The notes: generated by a model from the sequence alone, not told the origin. A stretch of DNA of 64,000 nt from an uncultured Phycisphaerales bacterium (GCA_963718665.1 OY970359.1:1760001-1824000), one strand, 5' to 3'. Shown: positions 33,753 to 44,338, counted from the first letter of the stretch. Made by a program: numbers and translations.

Positions 33753-35606
33753 TCATTGCCCCGCGGCTTGCGGGATTTGTTTTGTCGTTTCAGCAAGGTG
33801 CTTCAGCAGGTAATCTTTTTCCGGGCCGCCAAGATGTTCCCAAGGCAGGATTTCTTCGGTTGAGAATTGTTTTTGTGCGGCGGCATCGAGATTCATACCG
33901 TATTTTTTAAACGCATCATCCCAGATTGCCGGGTTGAATGTCTCGCTCCACAAATCGAATTTTGCGCCGTTGCGCCAGGCGTATTCAATCACATCTGCTA
34001 ATCGCCTGTCGCCTCGCCCGGTGGCTGATTCGAGAATCGACTGGTCTATCTCGTGGAATTTGAACTGGAGATATTTGGCGTTGATTTTTCTTTTCTCGGA
34101 GATGATTGTGTTTTTGGCGTTTTCGAAATACTCACGCGGCTGCTGCGCGAGCCAGCCGAAGGGCGTGTGCGGCTTGGGGACAAGCCAGCTCACCGCGACG
34201 TTGACCGAGGCGGTTTTGCCGTCGAAATTCCTGCGCAGTTTTGCCAGTTTGTCCGCGAGATGAACGATTTGCCTGATGTCGTCCTCGGTCTCGCCGGGCA
34301 GGCCTGTCATAAAGTACAATTTGATTTTCTGCCAGCCCGCCTGATAAGCGGCTGAGACGGCAGCGAAAAGGTCCTCGTCTTTCAACGGCTTATTGATGAT
34401 TTGCCTCAGCCGTTCGGATGCCGCCTCGACCGCGATGGTCAGGCCCGATTTTCGCACCTCGTTTGCAAGCGTTGGAAGGAGTTTCAACTGCTGGTCAACC
34501 CGCAAACTTGGCAGCGACAGCCCCACGTATTTATCCGTAAAATAACTGTGCAGCAGGTCAATCAGCTTTTCGATATCGGGATAATCGGCGGTAGATAAGC
34601 TCAATAAGCTGATTGTATCGAAGCCCGTCGCCTCGTAAGCAGCTTTGGCTATCTCGAAGATTTTGTCGATGCTGCGATAACGTATAGGCCTTCTGCAGAA
34701 GCTCGCCTGGCAAAACCTGCACCGGCCGGGGCAGCCCCGCATAATCTCAATACTGACCCGCTCATGAATCGCCTCGGCGAACGGCACAATTGGTTTTTTA
34801 GGCAGCGGCGCGTTATCGAGGTCGTCAACAATTGCGTTTTTGAATCGCGTGGGCAGGTTTTCTTTGACAGCGGCAAGCGATTTAATTTTTTCGCCATCGT
34901 ACTCGAATTTATAAAGCGACGGAACATATGCCCAGTCGAATTTTTCCGCCGCGGCAAGCAATATATCTTTTTTCGATGCGCCGGCTTTTTTGAGGTCGAT
35001 AATCAATCGGGCCAAATCAGGGACCGCATTTTCCGCCTCGCCGATAACAAACAGGTCAATGAATGGCGCAATCGGCTCGCAGCAGTTGGCCATACCGCCG
35101 CCCGCGATAATAATCGGGTCGGCTTCGCTTCGGTTTTCACTGCGAATGTTCAAGCCCGCCAAATCCAGCATATTCAGCACGTTGGTATAGCACAATTCGT
35201 TGGTCAAACTGAAGCCGATGACGTCGAAATCCTTGATGGCGGCCCTCGATTCGAGCGAGAAAAGCGGGATACCCTTTTCTCGCAGGATTTGCTCGGCGTC
35301 TAACCACGGCGCAAAAACCCGCTCTGCGGCGACGGCCTGCGGTGAGCCTGTCGAATCCGCGGGCATACGGTTGAGGACCTCGTAAACTACCGCCATTCCC
35401 GTATAGCTCATCCCGACCTCGTAAGTATCGGGAAAACATAACGCGATGGCTAAGCCACAATCGGCGAGGTCTTTTTTTATCTGATTGATTTCGCCGCCTA
35501 TGTATCTGCTGGGCCTGCGGACAAAGGGCAGGAATTCGCGGTCGATTCTTTCAGTCAGTATGGTTCGACTATGCTCACCACTGGTTGTCGGTTCTTTTCT
35601 TTTCAC
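33753..35606 (-). CDS. TIGR03960-type B12-binding-domain radical SAM protein
   Basis: PSRYIGGE, FPDTYEVGMS, RGCPGRCRFC (CxxxCxxC) and PKPHTPF. Confidence 0.88.
   Translation of the reverse strand: MKRKEPTTSGEHSRTILTERIDREFLPFVRRPSRYIGGEINQIKKDLADCGLAIALCFPDTYEVGMSYTGMAVVYEVLNRMPADSTGSPQAVAAERVFAPWLDAEQILREKGIPLFSLESRAAIKDFDVIGFSLTNELCYTNVLNMLDLAGLNIRSENRSEADPIIIAGGGMANCCEPIAPFIDLFVIGEAENAVPDLARLIIDLKKAGASKKDILLAAAEKFDWAYVPSLYKFEYDGEKIKSLAAVKENLPTRFKNAIVDDLDNAPLPKKPIVPFAEAIHERVSIEIMRGCPGRCRFCQASFCRRPIRYRSIDKIFEIAKAAYEATGFDTISLLSLSTADYPDIEKLIDLLHSYFTDKYVGLSLPSLRVDQQLKLLPTLANEVRKSGLTIAVEAASERLRQIINKPLKDEDLFAAVSAAYQAGWQKIKLYFMTGLPGETEDDIRQIVHLADKLAKLRRNFDGKTASVNVAVSWLVPKPHTPFGWLAQQPREYFENAKNTIISEKRKINAKYLQFKFHEIDQSILESATGRGDRRLADVIEYAWRNGAKFDLWSETFNPAIWDDAFKKYGMNLDAAAQKQFSTEEILPWEHLGGPEKDYLLKHLAETTKQIPQAAGQ
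35335..35360. repeat. REP-like element inside the radical SAM CDS
   Basis: GCCTGCGGTGAGCCTGTCGAATCCGC, related to the intergenic copy at 36286. Confidence 0.65.
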
Positions 35607-36285
35607 CCGCGTATTATAACGGATGATTAGCGGATAGCGTAGAGCGTTTAGCGGATAGTTCAACCTCAAATCAAAAATCAAAATGCAAAAGGCAAAAATG
35701 CGGTATCCCTAAGGGATGGATTTTAGTTTGAAGCCGAGCAAAGACATAGATTTCGCTGAAGGTGGGTAAAAGTTCAAAATTAGTATAAGGGGAAGCTTAT
35801 CATTCAACCAAAAACGCAAAAAAGTTTGGGAAGAAATGAGCGGATAAACGTTACAGTTAGCCCAGATTAACGAAGATGGGCAAGATGGGAAACGTAGGGT
35901 AGGAAAAATATTTTTTCATTTCAAAAAACGTTCAAAAAGTGACCCAAAAATGCGCGAAATTGACAAAAGTGAGCACGATTTGACAAAAAAAATACAAAAA
36001 GTGACAGATTTTGTGCAATTTTGTACACGTTTTTTCAGTTCGATATATTAGCGGAATTAATTGTTAAAATAGAGAGGTTAGTCGTTAGTGGTTAGTCGAT
36101 AGTCCGCCGGAGGCGGCAAAGATTGCCCAGATTAACCCCATGAGATAGCGAAACGGCATCTCACGGGGTGAACACGGATTTTTAAGGGAAAAAGCTTGTT
36201 TTCGATTTTAGTTTGGGGATATACTGTTACTTTAAGGCCGGAAGAAAAGATTATTGAAGAAAACGCACCTTTGGCCGTCAGCTTT

Positions 36286-36309
36286 GCCTGCCCTGAGCTT
36301 GTCGAAGGG
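36286..36309. repeat. REP-like element
   Basis: GCCTGCCCTGAGCTTGTCGAAGGG. Confidence 0.65.
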
Positions 36310-36392
36310 CTATTTGGAATATGCCTTTGTAGACTGAGGAAATAAATAGGGTATCGTTGTAATTCTAAAGGTTTGTTTTTAAGGTAAGATGA

Positions 36393-36908
36393 ATGGGAGA
36401 AAGAATAATATATGAATATAGATCACCATCGCTAATCCCCACGGATCATTTGCATGATATCGTTCAACTAATTTCAGATGGCGGAGAAGTAGACAACAAA
36501 ACACTTTGGGATAAAATTAATAATGCTATTATTATAGGATACGCTATCGCAAATGATTTAGTTGTGGGGACTGGTGCATTGAAGAAGCCGCATGACTCCA
36601 GTAACGATAATGCTTTTGTAAAAGCAGGTGCAGACGTCAAGTATGAAGACTATCCTTATGAATTGGGATACGTATTTGTGAAAGAGAATCATCGAGGAGC
36701 ATTTGTTGCAAGCCGAATTTGTAATACACTATGCAAGATGTACTCACGCGCGAATATCTATTCGACATTGAGATCAGACAACAGAATCGCACGCTTATTA
36801 ATGGAAAGGTCAGGATTTACCCAATCTGGAACAAGCTTCATGAGTAGAAACGGCAAGGATATGCTTATGTTATATATTAGAAATGCACAAAATGGATTAT
36901 CAAGATGA
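36393..36908 (+). CDS. GNAT-family acetyltransferase
   Basis: VVGTGAL, ELGYVFV..HRG..VA (motif A) and N..A..L.ERSGF (motif B). Confidence 0.8.
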   Translation: MGERIIYEYRSPSLIPTDHLHDIVQLISDGGEVDNKTLWDKINNAIIIGYAIANDLVVGTGALKKPHDSSNDNAFVKAGADVKYEDYPYELGYVFVKENHRGAFVASRICNTLCKMYSRANIYSTLRSDNRIARLLMERSGFTQSGTSFMSRNGKDMLMLYIRNAQNGLSR

Positions 36909-38485
36909 TAGCAGTTAGTACACCGGACAAAAGACAAAACCGAGAGTTGCTCTTACTTGCCAATGCTGCAAGAATGGCAGCCCAGAAGAGAATGGGATAT
37001 TCGCACTACGCATACTTTCTTGCGTGCATATGTTCGGTTTTATCGCTCTTCATGGGAAGCGTTGTAAGCATAGTGCTCGCAGTTATAGGTACTATATTAG
37101 CAGGGAGCGGTTTGCTGATCAGGTCCCGATGTATGAGGATTCATTATCTATCGCGAGAGGCTCAAAGGCTGGCTCTTCTGGAGGATTCGCTCGGAAGAAT
37201 TGCAGAAGACTACCACATTGTTGAGCTTCGTCGGAAAATGGGCGTGGAGATAGAAAAGAAAGCAAAAACTTACTTACTTGAAAAAAGCTATTACCGTAGC
37301 AAGAAACCTAGAGGTCAATCGAGATTGAAAGAGAACATGCAACAAAGCTCGTTTTGGAGCAAAGCATTACTTGATAAATACTCTTTCTATCTCTATCTGA
37401 TCGTTTTGATTTATGTAGTTGCAATGATAGCTACTCTGGTTATTTATGTAGTCATACACAGTAAAGAGCCTGAATATACGGGAAACATTGCAGTACTTAT
37501 AGTCTCCACATTGGTCCTATTGGGGATTGTGCTGGAAGAATGGAGAGCGGCGAGGAGCGTGAAGCTTGCGGTGGAAATGCTTGAAGGCGTCGATAATCAG
37601 TTGGATACAGTTTATGAGGATGATAGCATAGTCATAATATCCAAATTTGCAGACTATGGAATATCCGTAACTGAGGCTCCCCCTATTCCCTATATCATCT
37701 ATGCCTTCAACAAGGATCATCTAAGAGGGCTATGGGACAAAAGATTGCATGTTAGACTTTTGAGTGTAGAAGAACTGTCCGGAAGCATGGATTTGCCTAC
37801 AATAGACATGGAGGACTGCATGCCTCCAACTTGGATCGATGATGGCGAGTTCAAATTATTGCTTTTAAATACCTGCCTATTCGTACGGAATAGATTTAAG
37901 GGCGTAATGATAACAAGAGTAACCGTAAATGGCTTACCGGGATATAGTGGTGTCGGAGTATACTCTTTGAAGTATTTCGCGGACAACTCAACAGTAATAC
38001 AGTACGTTCTTAGGTTACATGAAGAAGAGGAGCAGGCTCGACGGGAGTACAATACCATCGAAAAAATATCGAGTACGGGATTTGACGTATTCGCATATGT
38101 CCCTGTCGGTGAGCCTTATATAGCACATGGTGCGTTGTTGTATACGCATGCCAACCACCAAACATATGATGTGCTTAAACACTTGCATGTATTTCTGGGT
38201 GATCTCATTAACGACAGCGACCTGCTTGTAGAGGTGAGACTTAGGAAATTATCTCATGGTATTCGAACGCTGATAAAGGCATTGAGTTCTATTGAAAAAC
38301 CTGAATATATTACGACATTGGACTACTATAAAAACAATACACTCAATTTCCCCCCTCGAAATATTCTAGACTTACGAAATACGACTCACAAAATTGCCGA
38401 TGGGATCATTCACATCGACTGCAAGTCAGAACGAGGAGGCATTTCAGTCAATGATGGACCATTGCAATATAGTAAATGGCTTTGA
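36905..38485 (+). CDS. S-4TM-like membrane effector domain plus soluble extension (probable N-terminal part of a kinase fusion)
   Basis: Two pairs of TM helices; YY..RLKENMQQSSFWS..L..Y and PPIPY..Y..KDHL..LW motifs; ATGA overlap with the GNAT gene. Confidence 0.6.
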   Translation: MIAVSTPDKRQNRELLLLANAARMAAQKRMGYSHYAYFLACICSVLSLFMGSVVSIVLAVIGTILAGSGLLIRSRCMRIHYLSREAQRLALLEDSLGRIAEDYHIVELRRKMGVEIEKKAKTYLLEKSYYRSKKPRGQSRLKENMQQSSFWSKALLDKYSFYLYLIVLIYVVAMIATLVIYVVIHSKEPEYTGNIAVLIVSTLVLLGIVLEEWRAARSVKLAVEMLEGVDNQLDTVYEDDSIVIISKFADYGISVTEAPPIPYIIYAFNKDHLRGLWDKRLHVRLLSVEELSGSMDLPTIDMEDCMPPTWIDDGEFKLLLLNTCLFVRNRFKGVMITRVTVNGLPGYSGVGVYSLKYFADNSTVIQYVLRLHEEEEQARREYNTIEKISSTGFDVFAYVPVGEPYIAHGALLYTHANHQTYDVLKHLHVFLGDLINDSDLLVEVRLRKLSHGIRTLIKALSSIEKPEYITTLDYYKNNTLNFPPRNILDLRNTTHKIADGIIHIDCKSERGGISVNDGPLQYSKWL

Positions 38486-39191
38486 ATATCAAGTTAATGC
38501 TTATGAAATCAACTATAACAGAAATGGTCAACTTCATAGAATCCTGTTGTCAAAGCGAGAAGATTATAGAACGCTGTTAACACGAGGTAGCATTAATGTT
38601 TTGTACAGGGGCACGAGCCCTTACATTGACTTCGCTATCTATTGTCGCGATTCATTGAGAATAGAAGTTACGTGCTCTGAACCTAAGACATTGGTTGAAT
38701 CGTTCTGTGAAAATCATAGCAAGGAGCCACTCTGTACATGGTATTGCCATAACGATTTACACTGCAAAAACATATTGGTATCAGATAGCAACGTAAAGTT
38801 TGTTGATATTGGCGATGCTGGTCCAAACATTGCATGTAGAGATTCCTCAAGACTGGAACTTTCAATAATGTCTATGCTTTGCCTACAGGGTAGCGTGACA
38901 ACAAATGATTGCCTGACTGCATTGAAATACATGGATGGTGAAATAGATCAAGGCAACATCTCCATGCAAGCAGGAAAACTCGGAAAAATTTTGAAGATAG
39001 TGAAGGAAACCATGTTTGATGAGTTCGTTTATAGACCCTCAATTATTGACCAGAGACTTGCCAGCTTTGTTGAGGTATACGAACAGTTGAACTATTCTAT
39101 GTCATCAGCCATGCGTTTACCAGAGGGATTTGGGCCTATTGTTGATTATTACTACACAAAGTTCGATGATTTAACCAAAGCAACCACTTGA
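38394..39191 (+). CDS. Kinase-fold (APH/choline kinase-like) phosphotransferase C-terminal part; +1 frame relative to the upstream ORF
   Basis: HNDLHCKNILV catalytic loop, FVDIGD metal-binding motif and D..RLE. Confidence 0.7.
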   Translation: MPMGSFTSTASQNEEAFQSMMDHCNIVNGFEYQVNAYEINYNRNGQLHRILLSKREDYRTLLTRGSINVLYRGTSPYIDFAIYCRDSLRIEVTCSEPKTLVESFCENHSKEPLCTWYCHNDLHCKNILVSDSNVKFVDIGDAGPNIACRDSSRLELSIMSMLCLQGSVTTNDCLTALKYMDGEIDQGNISMQAGKLGKILKIVKETMFDEFVYRPSIIDQRLASFVEVYEQLNYSMSSAMRLPEGFGPIVDYYYTKFDDLTKATT

Positions 39192-39210
39192 ATTATGAAA
39201 GGAATAAACA

Positions 39211-39843
39211 TTGAGCGTAAAAAAGATAGATGACGTTCGCAGGTTTGTAGAATACATATTTGCAGAATCGACACAACGATCATATTACGAGCACACTTTG
39301 AGAGTCTACCGTTTTGCATATTATATTGGAGAAGAGGAAAACGCAGATATGGAGATATTGTTGCCTGCGGTCTTAATGCATGACATAGGCATGACGATAG
39401 ACACAGGATTTCCCCGGCATGTAGATAAATCTGCATACCTTGCAAAGATGTACTTGAAAAGCAATGGTTATCCGAGCGACAAAACAGACAGAATATTGCA
39501 GGTTATAACATCTCATCACATTCCTCCTTATGAAACCAGAAAGAACAAAGAAGAAGAGGTTATTTTTGACGCTGACACACTAGAAATTGTTGGTGGCTAT
39601 GGCATATTGCGATGGCTAGGAAAGTCTATTTTGTCAGAACAGACCATCGTAGATTCGATCAACCTATTCAGTAATATTGTGAAGTCCGCAAAGGACAAAA
39701 GAGGATCCCTATTTTTCACCGAAACCGCTAAGAAACTTGGCGACAAGTCTGTAGAAGAGTCACTTGAATACTACCGCCGCATCATTGAGTACTTTGGAAC
39801 CTGTAAGTCATATACAGGCATTATATCACCCGTTGAAATATGA
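39211..39843 (+). CDS. HD-domain phosphohydrolase
   Basis: H..RV, LMHDIG, H, SHH and FDADTL; TTG start with AAGGA RBS. Confidence 0.88.
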   Translation: MSVKKIDDVRRFVEYIFAESTQRSYYEHTLRVYRFAYYIGEEENADMEILLPAVLMHDIGMTIDTGFPRHVDKSAYLAKMYLKSNGYPSDKTDRILQVITSHHIPPYETRKNKEEEVIFDADTLEIVGGYGILRWLGKSILSEQTIVDSINLFSNIVKSAKDKRGSLFFTETAKKLGDKSVEESLEYYRRIIEYFGTCKSYTGIISPVEI

Positions 39844-39855
39844 GTCTGTGTTGAT

Positions 39856-40380
39856 ATGAAAAAGCAAATCATAGGACTATCTGGATATCGTTGTTCCGGC
39901 AAATCGGTGCTGCGACAATTGTTAGTTAAGAATGGATACGATGTATTTGACACAAATTCAGTCCCAACGGGTGACAATGATGCAAACCAAGTATCTTTCG
40001 ATGTTATTGAACGCTATGGAAAAGGTTCCTCCCTCATGTATTTCCTTGAGGATTCTCTAAGAAAATACGTGGAGTCCAGCGGGCGTTTTGTATTCATCGA
40101 TAGCTTCAAGACTTACAAGGATTATGAGGTCGTATCAGAGATGTTTCCAGAAAGCAATGTCGCTATATGGTATGTACACGCTTCATACAAGTTACGAGTT
40201 TCAAGATACAAAGTGAGAGACCTTGACGCAGGTGTACGGTCACAGAAGTTATCAGAGCATGATGATTCGCTTGATAAATTTGGAATGCCAGCATTAATCA
40301 AGCATGCGTCTTATGTTGTGAATATGGACGATGACAAAGACAAGATATTACAGAATGTTTTAAGGCAAATCATGAAATGA
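39856..40380 (+). CDS. P-loop nucleoside/nucleotide kinase-like protein
   Basis: IIGLSGYRCSGKS Walker A, FIDS, A....R..R lid motif. Confidence 0.75.
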   Translation: MKKQIIGLSGYRCSGKSVLRQLLVKNGYDVFDTNSVPTGDNDANQVSFDVIERYGKGSSLMYFLEDSLRKYVESSGRFVFIDSFKTYKDYEVVSEMFPESNVAIWYVHASYKLRVSRYKVRDLDAGVRSQKLSEHDDSLDKFGMPALIKHASYVVNMDDDKDKILQNVLRQIMK

Positions 40381-40744
40381 TAATGTCAAAAATATTTCGC
40401 AAATTCTGTGATATACCCTTCATCTGGTCGTAGCCATTAAAATACCAACACCATGGGGATAGTAAGAATTTGCCGTTGAAAAAAGTTTTGGTTTGGGTAG
40501 AATTGGGGGGTAAGCAATTTTCGATTTTCGATTGCCGATTTTGGGATGCGGAGGGGCATTTCCAGAACGATACAAGTGCGTATTGACTCGCGGCATCAAT
40601 TGTTGTATAAATATCCGTTTTACCGCAGAGACCGCGAGGCACGCAGAGATAAATTTTTGGTTTTTCTGTGTTATTGGCCTTCTCAGCGGCAAAAAAGGGG
40701 TTTTTCTCGCAATAATGATAATCTTTTTGAGAGGTTAGGCAATT

Positions 40745-43700
40745 ATGGCAACGGCAAGACGCATGGTAACGATAGACGGGAATACGGCGGCGGCGCATGT
40801 GGCGCACGCGACGAATGAAGTAATAGCGATATATCCGATAACGCCGAGTTCGCCGATGGGCGAGATTTCGGATGATAAAACAGCCCGGAGCGAACGCAAT
40901 ATATGGGGCACGATTCCGTCGGTAACGGAAATGCAGTCGGAAGGCGGAGCGGCAGGGGCGGTTCACGGCGCTCTGACGGCAGGGGCGCTGACGACGACCT
41001 TTACGGCGTCGCAGGGCCTTCTGCTGATGATACCGGATATGTATAAAATCGCGGGCGAATTGCTGCCCACAGTGTTTCATATAACGGCGAGGTCGCTGGC
41101 GGCGCATGCGTTGTCGATATTCGGCGACCAGGCGGACGTGATGGCGTGCAGGCAGACGGGATGGGGGATGCTTTGCAGCGCCTCTGTGCAGGAGGTAATG
41201 GATTTTGCGTTGATAACTCAGGCGGCGACGCTTGAAAGCCGAGTGCCGTTTTTGCATTTCTTCGACGGGTTCCGCACGAGCCATGAGATTCAGAAGGTCG
41301 AAGAGCTGAGCTATGATGATATGCGGGCGATGATTCCGGATGAGCTGGTTGCGGCGGTGAAGGCGAGGGCGTTGTCGCCTGACAGGCCGATGATTGCGGG
41401 AACGGCGCAGAACCCGGATGTGTATTTCCAGGGCAGGGAGGCGGCGAATAATTTTTATACGGCGACGCCGGCGATTGTGCAGAAGGCGATGGATAAGTTC
41501 GCCAAAATTGTCGGACGGCAGTATCATTTGTTCGATTATGTCGGGGCGGCTGATGCCGAGAAGGTCATCATAATTATGGGTTCGGGCGCGGATACGGCGC
41601 ATGAGACGGTTGAGTATCTTAATTCAAAGGGTCAGAAAATTGGCGTATTAAAAGTACGGCTTTTCAGGCCTTTCAGCGTACAGGATTTCATCAATGCATT
41701 ACCAAAGACCGTGAAGAAAATTGCGGTATTGGACAGGACAAAGGAGCCGGGCGCGCTGGGCGAGCCGTTATATATGGATATTCGCACGGCGGTCGGCGAG
41801 GCGATGGGCAGAAAGCAAAGCCCCTTCAAAGATTACCCGGTGATTGTGGGCGGCAGATACGGGCTTGGCTCGAAGGAATTTACGCCCGCGATGGTCAAGG
41901 CGGTGTTCGATAATCTCGACGCGAAAGAGCCGAAGAATGGTTTTACCGTGGGCATTATCGACGACGTTTCGAATACGAGCTTGGATTTCGATGAGTCGTT
42001 TGTGCTGCCGGCGGAGGGGATTTATACGGCGATGTTCTACGGGCTGGGTTCTGACGGCACGGTCGGCGCGAACCACAACTCGATACAGATTATCGGGCAA
42101 AAAACTGACAACAACGCGCAGGGTTATTTCGTTTACGATTCGAAGAAGGCGGGCGCGATTACGATATCGCATCTGCGGTTCGGCAAAAAGACGATTCGCA
42201 GGCCATACCTGATTACCAAGGCGGATTTCGTCGCGTGCCACAACCCAAGCTTCTTAGAAAAATACGATATGCTCTCGACCGCCAAAGACGGGGCGACGTT
42301 TTTGATGACGAGTATGTACCCGGCGGACAAGGTTTGGGACACGCTGCCTCAGGAAGTGCAAAAGCAGATAATCGACAAGAAACTGAAATTCTACGTTATC
42401 GACGCGATATCGCTCGCCAAGGAAATCGGTCTTGGCGCGAGAATCAATACGATTATGCAGGTGGCGTTCTTCAAAATCAGCAACATCATACCGATTGAGA
42501 AAGCGATTGAGGCAATCAAGGCGGCGATACAGAAGAGCTACGGCAAGAAGGGCGAAAGAATCGTCGCGATGAATAACGCAGCGGTTGACGGTGCATTGGC
42601 GAAGGTCTTTGAGGTCAAGGTGCCGGGCAAGGTTACGAGCAAAACGACCAAGCCGCCGGTTGTGTCGAAGGATGCGCCGAAGTTTGTGCAGGAAGTAACC
42701 GCGGAGATTATGGCGCTGCGAGGGGACAAGCTGCCCATCAGCAAACTGCCGAATGACGGCAAATGGCCGAGCGGGACAACGAAATTCGAGAAACGCAATA
42801 TCGCGGTCGATATACCGGCGTGGGAGCCGTCGCTTTGTATTCAGTGCGGGACATGCTCGCTGGTTTGCCCGCACGGGACGATTCGGCTGAAGGCCTACGA
42901 CAAGAAGTATCTCGACAAGGCGCCGAAAGCATTCAAGAGTGCGGAGGCGAAAGGCAAGGAATTAGCGGGCCTGTCAGCGACTGTTCAGGTGGCCGCTGAG
43001 GATTGCACGGGATGCGGGGCGTGCGTGCAGATGTGCCCGGTGCAGGAAAAGGACGCGAATAAACAGCCAACGGGACGCAAGGCGATTAATATGACTTTGC
43101 AGGAGCCGCTGCGTGTGCAGGAAAGGGAAAACTATAAATATTTCCTGTCGATACCGAATACCGATTCGAAACTGTTCAAACGCGAAAGCGTCAAGGGCAG
43201 CCAGTTAATTATGCCTTTGTTTGAATATTCGGGCGCGTGCGCGGGCTGCGGCGAGACGCCTTATGTGAAACTTTTATCGCAGTTGTTCGGCGACAGGGCG
43301 ATGATAGGCAACGCGACGGGCTGCTCGTCGATTTACGGAGGCAACCTTCCGACGACGCCATACACGACGCGTGAAGACGGTCGCGGCCCGATTTGGAGCA
43401 ACAGCTTGTTCGAGGACAACGCCGAGTTCTCACTCGGTATGCGGCTGACGGTTGAAAAATTCAAACAACAGGCGGTCGAGCTGGTCGATGCGGTCGCCAA
43501 GAAGGGCTGTATCGATGCGGTATTTGCAGGCGAAATAATCGCCGCTGTGGCTGCCAATGACCCATCGCAGGACGCGATTGAGACGCAGCGAGGCCGGGTG
43601 GCGAAACTAAAAGAGCTGTGCAAGAAAAGCAATTGTGCCGAATGCAAACGATTGTTGACGCTGGCGGATTATCTTGTTCGCAAATCGGTGTGGGCGGTCG

Positions 43701-44338
43701 GCGGGGACGGCTGGGCTTATGATATCGGTTACGGCGGGCTCGACCACGTGCTGGCGAACGGCGCGGATATAAACATACTGGTTCTCGATACCGAGGTTTA
43801 CTCGAATACGGGCGGTCAGATGTCGAAATCGACCCCAAGGGGGGCGGTTGCGAAATTTGCCGCGGGCGGAAAGCCGGGGCCGAAGAAAGATATGGGCCTG
43901 CTCGCGATGACCTACGGCAATATCTACGTTGCCAAGGTCGCGTTGGGTGCCAACACAAATCAGGCGGTAAAGGCATTCATCGAGGCCGAAGCATATCCGG
44001 GCCCGTCGTTGATAGTCGCTTATGCCCAGTGCATCAATCACGGCATCGATATGACGATGGGTTACGAGGAGCAGAAAAAAGCGGTGGCCTGCGGGCACTG
44101 GCCGCTGTTCAGGTTTGACCCGCGTCTGAAAGCACAGGGCAAAAACCCGCTGCAGCTTGATTCGAAGGCGCCGACAATCAGGTTCGACGAGTATGCTTAT
44201 AACGAGAACCGTTATAAATCGCTGCTGAAATCGAAACCTGAGGCGGCGGAACGGCTGATGAAACTGGCAAATGGCGACGCGGCGCACCGGTATTCGCTTA
44301 TGGAGCAGCTCGCGAAAATACAGTGCGAAAAAATTTAG
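40745..44338 (+). CDS. nifJ: Pyruvate:ferredoxin (flavodoxin) oxidoreductase
   Basis: YPITPSS, QSEGGAAG, two CxxCxxCxxxCP motifs, GACAGCGE and GGDGWAYDIG. Confidence 0.98.
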   Translation: MATARRMVTIDGNTAAAHVAHATNEVIAIYPITPSSPMGEISDDKTARSERNIWGTIPSVTEMQSEGGAAGAVHGALTAGALTTTFTASQGLLLMIPDMYKIAGELLPTVFHITARSLAAHALSIFGDQADVMACRQTGWGMLCSASVQEVMDFALITQAATLESRVPFLHFFDGFRTSHEIQKVEELSYDDMRAMIPDELVAAVKARALSPDRPMIAGTAQNPDVYFQGREAANNFYTATPAIVQKAMDKFAKIVGRQYHLFDYVGAADAEKVIIIMGSGADTAHETVEYLNSKGQKIGVLKVRLFRPFSVQDFINALPKTVKKIAVLDRTKEPGALGEPLYMDIRTAVGEAMGRKQSPFKDYPVIVGGRYGLGSKEFTPAMVKAVFDNLDAKEPKNGFTVGIIDDVSNTSLDFDESFVLPAEGIYTAMFYGLGSDGTVGANHNSIQIIGQKTDNNAQGYFVYDSKKAGAITISHLRFGKKTIRRPYLITKADFVACHNPSFLEKYDMLSTAKDGATFLMTSMYPADKVWDTLPQEVQKQIIDKKLKFYVIDAISLAKEIGLGARINTIMQVAFFKISNIIPIEKAIEAIKAAIQKSYGKKGERIVAMNNAAVDGALAKVFEVKVPGKVTSKTTKPPVVSKDAPKFVQEVTAEIMALRGDKLPISKLPNDGKWPSGTTKFEKRNIAVDIPAWEPSLCIQCGTCSLVCPHGTIRLKAYDKKYLDKAPKAFKSAEAKGKELAGLSATVQVAAEDCTGCGACVQMCPVQEKDANKQPTGRKAINMTLQEPLRVQERENYKYFLSIPNTDSKLFKRESVKGSQLIMPLFEYSGACAGCGETPYVKLLSQLFGDRAMIGNATGCSSIYGGNLPTTPYTTREDGRGPIWSNSLFEDNAEFSLGMRLTVEKFKQQAVELVDAVAKKGCIDAVFAGEIIAAVAANDPSQDAIETQRGRVAKLKELCKKSNCAECKRLLTLADYLVRKSVWAVGGDGWAYDIGYGGLDHVLANGADINILVLDTEVYSNTGGQMSKSTPRGAVAKFAAGGKPGPKKDMGLLAMTYGNIYVAKVALGANTNQAVKAFIEAEAYPGPSLIVAYAQCINHGIDMTMGYEEQKKAVACGHWPLFRFDPRLKAQGKNPLQLDSKAPTIRFDEYAYNENRYKSLLKSKPEAAERLMKLANGDAAHRYSLMEQLAKIQCEKI

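Follow-up and report, generated by a model that had tools for sequence, protein, structure and literature searches.

A 64,000 nucleotide (nt) stretch of DNA from an uncultured Phycisphaerales bacterium (GCA_963718665.1 OY970359.1:1760001-1824000), termed here the window, displays five open reading frames (ORFs) at positions 36393–40380, all on the plus strand. These represent four genes, for a GNAT acetyltransferase, a protein in which a SMODS-associating four-transmembrane (S-4TM) domain is fused to a kinase domain, an HD phosphohydrolase and a P-loop protein with a nucleoside monophosphate (NMP) kinase fold. The region is a copy, acquired by horizontal transfer, of a conserved and mobile cassette of four genes, and its central gene, the S-4TM-kinase, is split here by a frameshift. 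The features of the cassette are as follows, with chain lengths in amino acids (aa).

36393–36908, plus strand: GNAT acetyltransferase, cassette gene 1, 171 aa (Pfam Acetyltransf_1)
36905–38485, plus strand: truncated S-4TM-kinase gene, 526 aa, with the S-4TM domain, the kinase N-lobe and part of an inserted beta-rich region; its end is out of frame
36977–37744, plus strand: S-4TM domain, residues ~25–280 (PADLOC PDLC00724 'Effector 4TM')
38394–39191, plus strand: mechanical ORF with the kinase catalytic C-lobe, 265 aa
38462–38465, plus strand: +1 frameshift site, ttgc, four bases versus one codon in relatives
38466–39191, plus strand: remainder of the kinase in the shifted frame, with the HNDLHCKN catalytic loop, the Mg-binding DIGD and the C-lobe
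39211–39843, plus strand: HD phosphohydrolase of the YpgQ/YedJ group, 210 aa (Pfam HD, PDB 5dqv)
39856–40380, plus strand: P-loop protein with an NMP-kinase fold, 174 aa (Walker A GYRCSGKS; AlphaFold2 (AF2) model and Foldseek)

The GNAT stop codon and the S-4TM-kinase start codon overlap as ATGA at 36905–36908, and intergenic gaps of 19 nt and 12 nt precede the HD gene and the P-loop gene, respectively. The fraction of guanine plus cytosine (GC) is 0.38–0.44 over positions 35500–40749 versus 0.50–0.59 in the flanks; overall, an island of ~39% GC lies within flanks of ~52%. An initial annotation, made from the sequence alone, had described this tight co-oriented packing, the AT-richness relative to the flanks and an insertion between two genes with repeat-rich spacers. 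All three descriptions are correct, the two genes being a radical-SAM and a PFOR gene with dispersed repeats on both sides of the cassette. Its four domain calls (GNAT, S-4TM plus kinase, HD and P-loop kinase) are confirmed by Pfam, PADLOC, AF2 models searched with Foldseek, and profile searches of PDB, and the Pfam, PADLOC and NCBIfam scans agree with it that no cyclase, nuclease or methylase domain is present in the five window ORFs. The S-4TM-kinase is not a single ORF as annotated, however; the +1 frameshift at position 38464 that splits it had been overlooked.

Co-occurrence of the four genes in other genomes, on which the initial annotation had staked its reading, is observed. All four of the other loci that were fetched (L005, L006, L007 and L008) have the identical gene order with tight packing, and in them the S-4TM-kinase is intact at 767–781 aa, the HD protein is 209–214 aa and the P-loop protein is 188–200 aa in length. 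The window cassette proteins have 29–48% identity to those of L005–L008, and two of these loci (L007 and L008) are in metagenome-assembled genomes labelled as different phyla. The scans behind the four loci gave 2 relatives from 374 pattern matches in metagenomes, and in genomes none from 599 and then 2 from 172. By Pfam, no cyclase of the SMODS or any other family is present in the cassettes of the window and L005–L008.

Eight further contigs carry the fusion and the P-loop gene, as inferred from matching longest-contig sizes of the clusters (7576, 14380, 6852, 67303, 8103, 771036, 9773 and 10764), which serve as a fingerprint only. The P-loop family comprises 27 clusters, roughly equals the fusion family in rarity and has contigs in common with it. 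None of 40 relatives, 23 species of the genus among them, displayed the fusion; across the phylum, 2 of 401 genomes did, the window's own genome (G000) being one of these. Three scans of viral contigs, two with alignments of the fusion and one with a P-loop alignment, gave no relative, and a tblastn search of phage records gave no match. Plasmid records displayed no fusion, the sole match being a stand-alone S-4TM in a Nonomuraea record.

The two overlapping ORFs of 526 aa and 265 aa are halves of one gene. Alignment shows an uninterrupted frame across the junction in P0003, which is 85% identical, and in P0004, a full-length protein of 771 aa; the full-length relatives have chain lengths of 767–781 aa. 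Short-read contigs from runs X1 and X2, which belong to the same study and may be the source sample, show 0 differences from the window across the frameshift site. Run X3, from another study, has a relative of ~93% identity that is one letter shorter at 38464 and thereby back in frame. The sequence flanking the X3 copy diverges from that of the window, and this copy is therefore in another context. The agreement of X1 and X2 together with the intact frame in X3 shows that the frameshift is a true mutation of the lineage and is not due to assembly error. With its central gene split by a +1 insertion at 38464, the cassette copy in this genome is most likely inactive. Decay looks recent since the other three genes are intact.

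Programmed frameshifting was considered and rejected, as there is no slippery run at the site and the close relatives are simply without the extra base. A GAGGAGG run is present in the 38433–38456 region, 11 nt 5′ of in-frame ATG codons at 38451 and 38454. Separate translation of the kinase C-lobe after the frameshift is just conceivable, although the spacing is long.

The transmembrane domain of the window protein matches the PADLOC model of the CBASS (the antiphage signaling system based on cyclic oligonucleotides) '4TM effector', PDLC00724, over nearly the whole model length with an E-value of 2.8e-17. A match to S-4TM was another point on which the initial annotation had made its reading depend. 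All five of the other fusion proteins scanned also match the 4TM model (E 4e-8 to 6e-19), as do stand-alone relatives with E-values of 1e-27 to 1e-40. Hydrophobic stretches at residues 35–74 (room for two helices), 157–187 and 190–215 give four transmembrane helices, and the AF2 model of the full-length L006 orthologue (pLDDT confidence score 84.5) displays four long helices in the S-4TM part. Of the 713 matches at E ≤ 0.001 in a profile search against 1.84 billion representatives, the best 150 include about 19 full-length fusions (660–780 aa) and 87 stand-alone proteins (240–310 aa). The soluble-loop residues Y123, Y124, G131, R134, S142, Y245, PPxP, Y260 and W271 are common to 21 fusions and the 87 stand-alone proteins. 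The S-4TM domain was reportedly defined by Burroughs et al. in 2015 (NAR). In both stand-alone relatives examined (L027 and L031), a SMODS cyclase gene is directly upstream, and thus the domain is an S-4TM in the original sense.

The kinase is of the APH/choline-kinase type (TCAD9-like) with a protein-kinase-like fold, and its catalytic motif is intact in the relatives. In 21 full-length relatives the HxDxHxxN motif, the Mg-binding Asp, the alphaC Glu and the beta3 Lys or Arg are conserved, and the first two are invariant. Pfam Choline_kinase, TCAD9 and APH give weak matches over the catalytic loop of the window sequence. TCAD9 is the best Pfam kinase family for the relatives; its scores are mostly below the cut-off, thus the name "TCAD9-like". 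A Foldseek search with the L006 AF2 model gives 5-methylthioribose (MTR) kinase 2pun (E 1.2e-4), and also APH(3′)-Ia, choline kinase, amicoumacin kinase and FN3K, and the profile search against PDB gives choline kinase (E 5.7e-6). A TCAD9-like kinase domain is also located N-terminal to TIR, nSTAND1, AAA_35 or DEAD-helicase modules in proteins of 714–1815 aa (P0044, P0070, P0087, P0060 and P0074). The domain thus seems to recur as a module of conflict proteins.

The HD protein matches Pfam HD PF01966 (E 2.5e-15), and its closest PDB match is 5dqv (E 7.9e-12, residues 3–191), which the profile search supports. The structure 5dqv is that of Bacillus subtilis YpgQ, described as a Mn-dependent deoxynucleoside triphosphate (dNTP) diphosphatase with metal ligands H29, H58, D59 and D124 (PMC8177086). 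Residues H28, H57-D58, D120 and D122 of the HD protein are invariant across five orthologues. The protein is predicted to act as a nucleotide pyrophosphohydrolase of the YpgQ type.

The AF2 model of the P-loop protein (pLDDT 90.1) displays an NMP-kinase fold. The top Foldseek match is 3lw7, an AMP-bound protein related to adenylate kinase (E 3.9e-9, structural similarity (TM) score 0.71–0.75), and further matches are to adenylate, dephospho-CoA and UMP/CMP kinases, with TM scores of ~0.6–0.75 overall. The Walker A motif GxRCxGKS is conserved, and the lid residues R53, R114, R117, R121 and R128 are invariant in the orthologues.

The window GNAT has a Pfam Acetyltransf_1 score of 20.7 bits, right at the cut-off, and the orthologues in L005–L008, which are 29–37% identical to it, score 34–37 bits. 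An Atlas structure search gives TM scores of 0.85–0.90 to GNAT clusters. No GNAT toxin of the TacT/AtaT type is present by name among the best 60 of 68 PDB matches at E ≤ 1. A complex prediction for the full-length L006 S-4TM-kinase with its GNAT has a score of 0.00, which carries no weight either way. In the Atlas search the GNAT model also has a TM score of 0.90 to the GNAT part of 472-aa proteins with an SLFN/AlbA_2 domain, a lead to another conflict-type architecture.

The cassette is carried on conjugative or integrative elements. In L006 it comes after GajA (PADLOC, 2.7e-24), GajB (PADLOC, 1e-20), two integrases and ArdC. In L007, genes for a TIR protein, an ATPase of 1410 aa and a pentapeptide-ion-channel protein precede the cassette, and in L008 the genes around it encode a coupling protein of the TrwB type, ArdC, RadC, a ligase and a primase. 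L005 has a NUDIX gene downstream and is too short for more context. In the window the cassette is bounded as follows.

33753–35681, minus strand: radical-SAM gene, flank
35682–36392: upstream spacer, mostly dispersed repeats, including a ~300-bp element at ~35777–36071
40381–40744: downstream spacer before PFOR, short dispersed repeats
40745–44338, plus strand: PFOR gene, flank

The radical-SAM and PFOR flanks are both conserved in the genus, and their spacing is 1.3–8.1 kb in 15 congeners, i.e. those with both flanks on one contig. Twelve of the regions between the flanks were fetched; 30 ORFs from nine of them were scanned with Pfam and 12 ORFs from five with PADLOC. The cargo is of low GC and changes between species, which makes the radical-SAM/PFOR site a variable hotspot whose cargo is in part, though not entirely, defense-related:

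G002: GmrSD (PADLOC, 4.9e-144) and a TIR-methyltransferase
G019: SIR2 and two unknown proteins
G015: deaminase, nucleotidase (NT5C) and a 555-aa HD protein
G020: deoxyribosyltransferase-MazG fusion
G016: nucleotidyltransferase and a pentapeptide-ion channel
G012: ABC transporter and a two-component system

The neighbors of the related loci and the hotspot in the congeners support the defense or conflict context proposed by the initial annotation. The cassette copy in this genome is probably a recently inactivated passenger in this hotspot.

Fusions of pentapeptide repeats with Ion_trans_2 are present at L007 5441–6727, directly upstream of the cassette, and at L022 1559–2428 in the G016 hotspot. 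They match no PADLOC model and may represent a defense-associated channel family. The fusion in the G020 hotspot (L020 4074–4832) is a 252-aa protein with nucleoside 2-deoxyribosyltransferase-like and MazG pyrophosphohydrolase-like parts, and it adjoins a 461-aa protein that has no family match.

The spacers at 35629–36289 and 40459–40699 match many dispersed places in G000 and its congeners, and the upstream spacer also has short direct and inverted repeats. The ~300-bp element at 35777–36071 has many congener copies at 74–83% identity, with at least nine places in G015, and looks like a dispersed repeat of the miniature inverted-repeat transposable element type. Shorter repeats of 50–100 bp (~35629–35739, 36129–36182, 40466–40514 and 40619–40696) also have further copies, in part at other sites in G000. 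The cassette lies between the two copies of a 22-nt direct repeat (36199–36220 and 40518–40539, 82% identity), which may be part of the dispersed repeats or mark the recombination that imported the cassette. There is no tRNA gene within the window and thus no tRNA-linked integration site. Rfam gives no match in 35400–41000 at E ≤ 1. Promoter-like sites number 17 versus a shuffled expectation of 15.7 and terminator-like sites 2 versus 3.7, neither being above expectation.

The only SMODS-like gene of the G000 genome is ~520 kb from the cassette, with a score of 22.7 bits against a cut-off of 26.5. This gene and its neighbor (G000:C1:~2317099–2318660; L028 1450–3011) encode a 299-aa SMODS-like nucleotidyltransferase and then a 229-aa Cap15-type protein (PF18153, E 2.8e-22). 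The pair represents a CBASS- or Panoptes-like operon. Since the cassettes elsewhere are without a cyclase, a trans-acting cyclase is unneeded as an explanation.

The cassette is probably an undescribed conflict system without a cyclase, directed against phages or mobile elements in the manner of abortive infection, with the S-4TM domain as its killing part. The complete explanation, i.e. a mobile four-gene, cyclase-less conflict module that has decayed in this genome, has about an even chance of being correct. In the proposed mechanism, which is put forward tentatively, a phosphorylated nucleotide-type ligand made by the kinases and removed by the HD enzyme would gate the pore via the fused kinase. 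The S-4TM domain, with its CBASS-effector soluble-loop residues, would be the killing part, and its opening would be controlled via the fused kinase domain by a putative phosphorylated small molecule, most likely nucleotide- or nucleoside-derived. The P-loop kinase would add phosphate and the HD enzyme would remove pyrophosphate or phosphate, which would set the level of the ligand, and the GNAT may modify the ligand or a partner. This mechanism is favored because the S-4TM soluble residues are retained, the three soluble enzymes have nucleotide-type folds and the four genes are strictly linked. The nucleotide-signal idea of the initial annotation is the best single mechanism within the conflict interpretation, and its chances are clearly below even. 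A more specific form of it is doubtful: a cyclase-independent second messenger, a linear phosphorylated nucleotide or nucleoside derivative, which the kinase and the NMP-kinase-fold protein would make, the HD enzyme would remove and the GNAT would possibly acetylate, and which would gate the S-4TM. If true, this would mean that effectors associated with SMODS had been redirected to a kinase-built signal chemistry.

Several observations weigh against the conflict interpretation. The central gene is broken here, hence it is not being kept by this lineage. The defense role is inferred from context, with five contexts in all, and the ABC transporter and two-component system of the G012 hotspot are clearly non-defense cargo. 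None of the three accessory proteins matches a PADLOC-DB 2.0.0 model at E ≤ 1e-5, and Pfam shows no S-4TM-type family for the window transmembrane domain at E ≤ 0.1. The TCAD9 scores are 18.6 bits for the window fragment and 31.5–33.3 for L005–L008, with a cut-off of 40 (P0012 and P0034 score 45.4 and 52), and the window clade carries Arg where the beta3 Lys is expected. The nearest solved relatives of the kinase are small-molecule kinases, including antibiotic kinases, and a GNAT with an APH is a classic pairing of resistance loci.

The last of these points belong to a rival explanation, small-molecule resistance or salvage. The membrane-anchored APH-like kinase and the GNAT would disable an antibiotic that has entered the cell, either an aminoglycoside or a nucleoside analogue in type, and the HD and NMP-kinase-like proteins would process analogue phosphates. 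GNAT and APH together are known from antibiotic resistance, the best solved matches of the kinase model are MTR kinase, APH(3′)-Ia, amicoumacin kinase and FN3K, and the cassette rides conjugative or integrative elements. YpgQ-like HD enzymes, e.g. PenF, act on nucleoside-analogue phosphates (PMC11592144). However, the transmembrane domain is a whole-length homologue of the CBASS 4TM effector that has kept the conserved soluble residues, and TIR, STAND and helicase modules are the fusion partners of the related kinase domains. The NCBIfam scores are far sub-threshold (13.5 bits for APH(3′)-VIIa, cut-off 530; 13.2 for AAC(6′), on the HD protein, cut-off 400) and the neighbors are Gabija and TIR genes, with no resistance genes, all of which makes resistance or salvage unlikely. 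It is also rather unlikely that the cassette has two arms with no messenger between them, where the S-4TM-kinase is a self-contained sensor and effector that opens the pore once its kinase domain senses or phosphorylates a phage component, and the HD, P-loop and GNAT proteins edit or deplete nucleotide pools, by house-cleaning of phage-modified dNTPs or by production of antiviral nucleotide analogues. This would fit the dNTP hydrolysis by YpgQ (PMC8177086), the deaminase, nucleotidase and HD genes of nucleotide-depletion type in a congener hotspot (L018), and the N-terminal location of related kinase domains in many immune proteins that have no such accessory enzymes. A single pathway is however suggested by the constant order and tight packing of the four genes in all five loci, and the P-loop family is similar to the fusion family in rarity and shares contigs with it.

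A guard of the Panoptes/PanDA type is improbable. A constantly made ligand would keep the S-4TM pore shut, and nucleotide depletion or sequestration by a phage, or inhibition of the kinases, would open it. PanDA pairs minimal nucleotide-making enzymes with SMODS-associated transmembrane effectors that work in this way (bioRxiv 10.64898/2026.08.10.743972), and Pfam shows no obvious sensor domain in the cassettes of the window and L005–L008. The effector type and the enzymes are, however, unlike those of Panoptes/PanDA. The guard model also predicts that loss of an enzyme is lethal; in this genome the broken gene is that of the effector, which is compatible with either model. That unrelated accessory genes came together by chance, or persist as a decayed remnant, and do not function jointly would agree with the frameshift of the central gene in this genome, but it is extremely improbable given four other loci with identical gene order and intact frames at 29–48% identity, and the intact frame of the ~93% identical relative in X3.

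Among known systems, the cyclase-less conflict module proposed here is close to type I CBASS with a 4TM effector (e.g. EcCdnD12-4TM). The N-terminal ~280 residues of the cassette protein are homologous over their whole length to the effector profile, and the stand-alone S-4TM relatives adjoin SMODS cyclases. CdnD12-4TM operons restrict phages (bioRxiv 10.1101/2023.05.21.541620). The cassette is not CBASS because a cyclase is absent: none of the five cassettes has a CD-NTase, the GNAT, HD and P-loop kinase genes are present instead, and the effector is fused to a kinase. Panoptes and PanDA are similar in the combination of a small nucleotide-enzyme gene with a SMODS-associated membrane effector, and guard logic is a possible working mode for the cassette. 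They differ in having an S-2TM-beta/Cap15-like effector, a cyclase-made signal and two genes, whereas the cassette has kinases and four genes.

TCAD9 is associated with NTP-dependent vWA-MoxR-VMAP ternary conflict systems, and in the accessible part of that report a fusion of TCAD9 with S-4TM is not described (PMC10910872). The TCAD9-like kinase domain is held in common with these systems. The cassette is not a ternary system of this type since Pfam scans of ORFs around the window and L005–L008 gave no vWA, MoxR or VMAP family. The closest solved relatives of the HD protein are B. subtilis YpgQ (PDB 5DQV) and E. coli YedJ, where the H...HD...D ligands are conserved; these are themselves stand-alone proteins of ~210 aa with house-cleaning or unknown roles and are not known from immune operons. 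Resistance pairs of APH and AAC are of the same two enzyme superfamilies and are also found on mobile DNA, but the cassette kinase is fused to a pore-type effector domain, has HD and NMP-kinase partners, and gives no significant match to a curated model.

The literature searched, whose coverage did not include the original S-4TM-defining paper, has no description of the cassette. What appears to be new here is a SMODS-associated effector in a cyclase-less, kinase-based operon. No named system in PADLOC-DB 2.0.0 or the searched literature has this composition, in agreement with the initial annotation. If the cassette is an immune system, a membrane effector of the CBASS type works without a nucleotide cyclase and is coupled to kinases, a pyrophosphohydrolase and an acetyltransferase. 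Bacterial immunity would then include a new signal chemistry or a new logic of sensing, and the TCAD9-like kinase domain seen in TIR, STAND and helicase fusions would be given a function. The cassette is ~4 kb in length, self-contained and intact in related loci, and thus the idea is directly testable.

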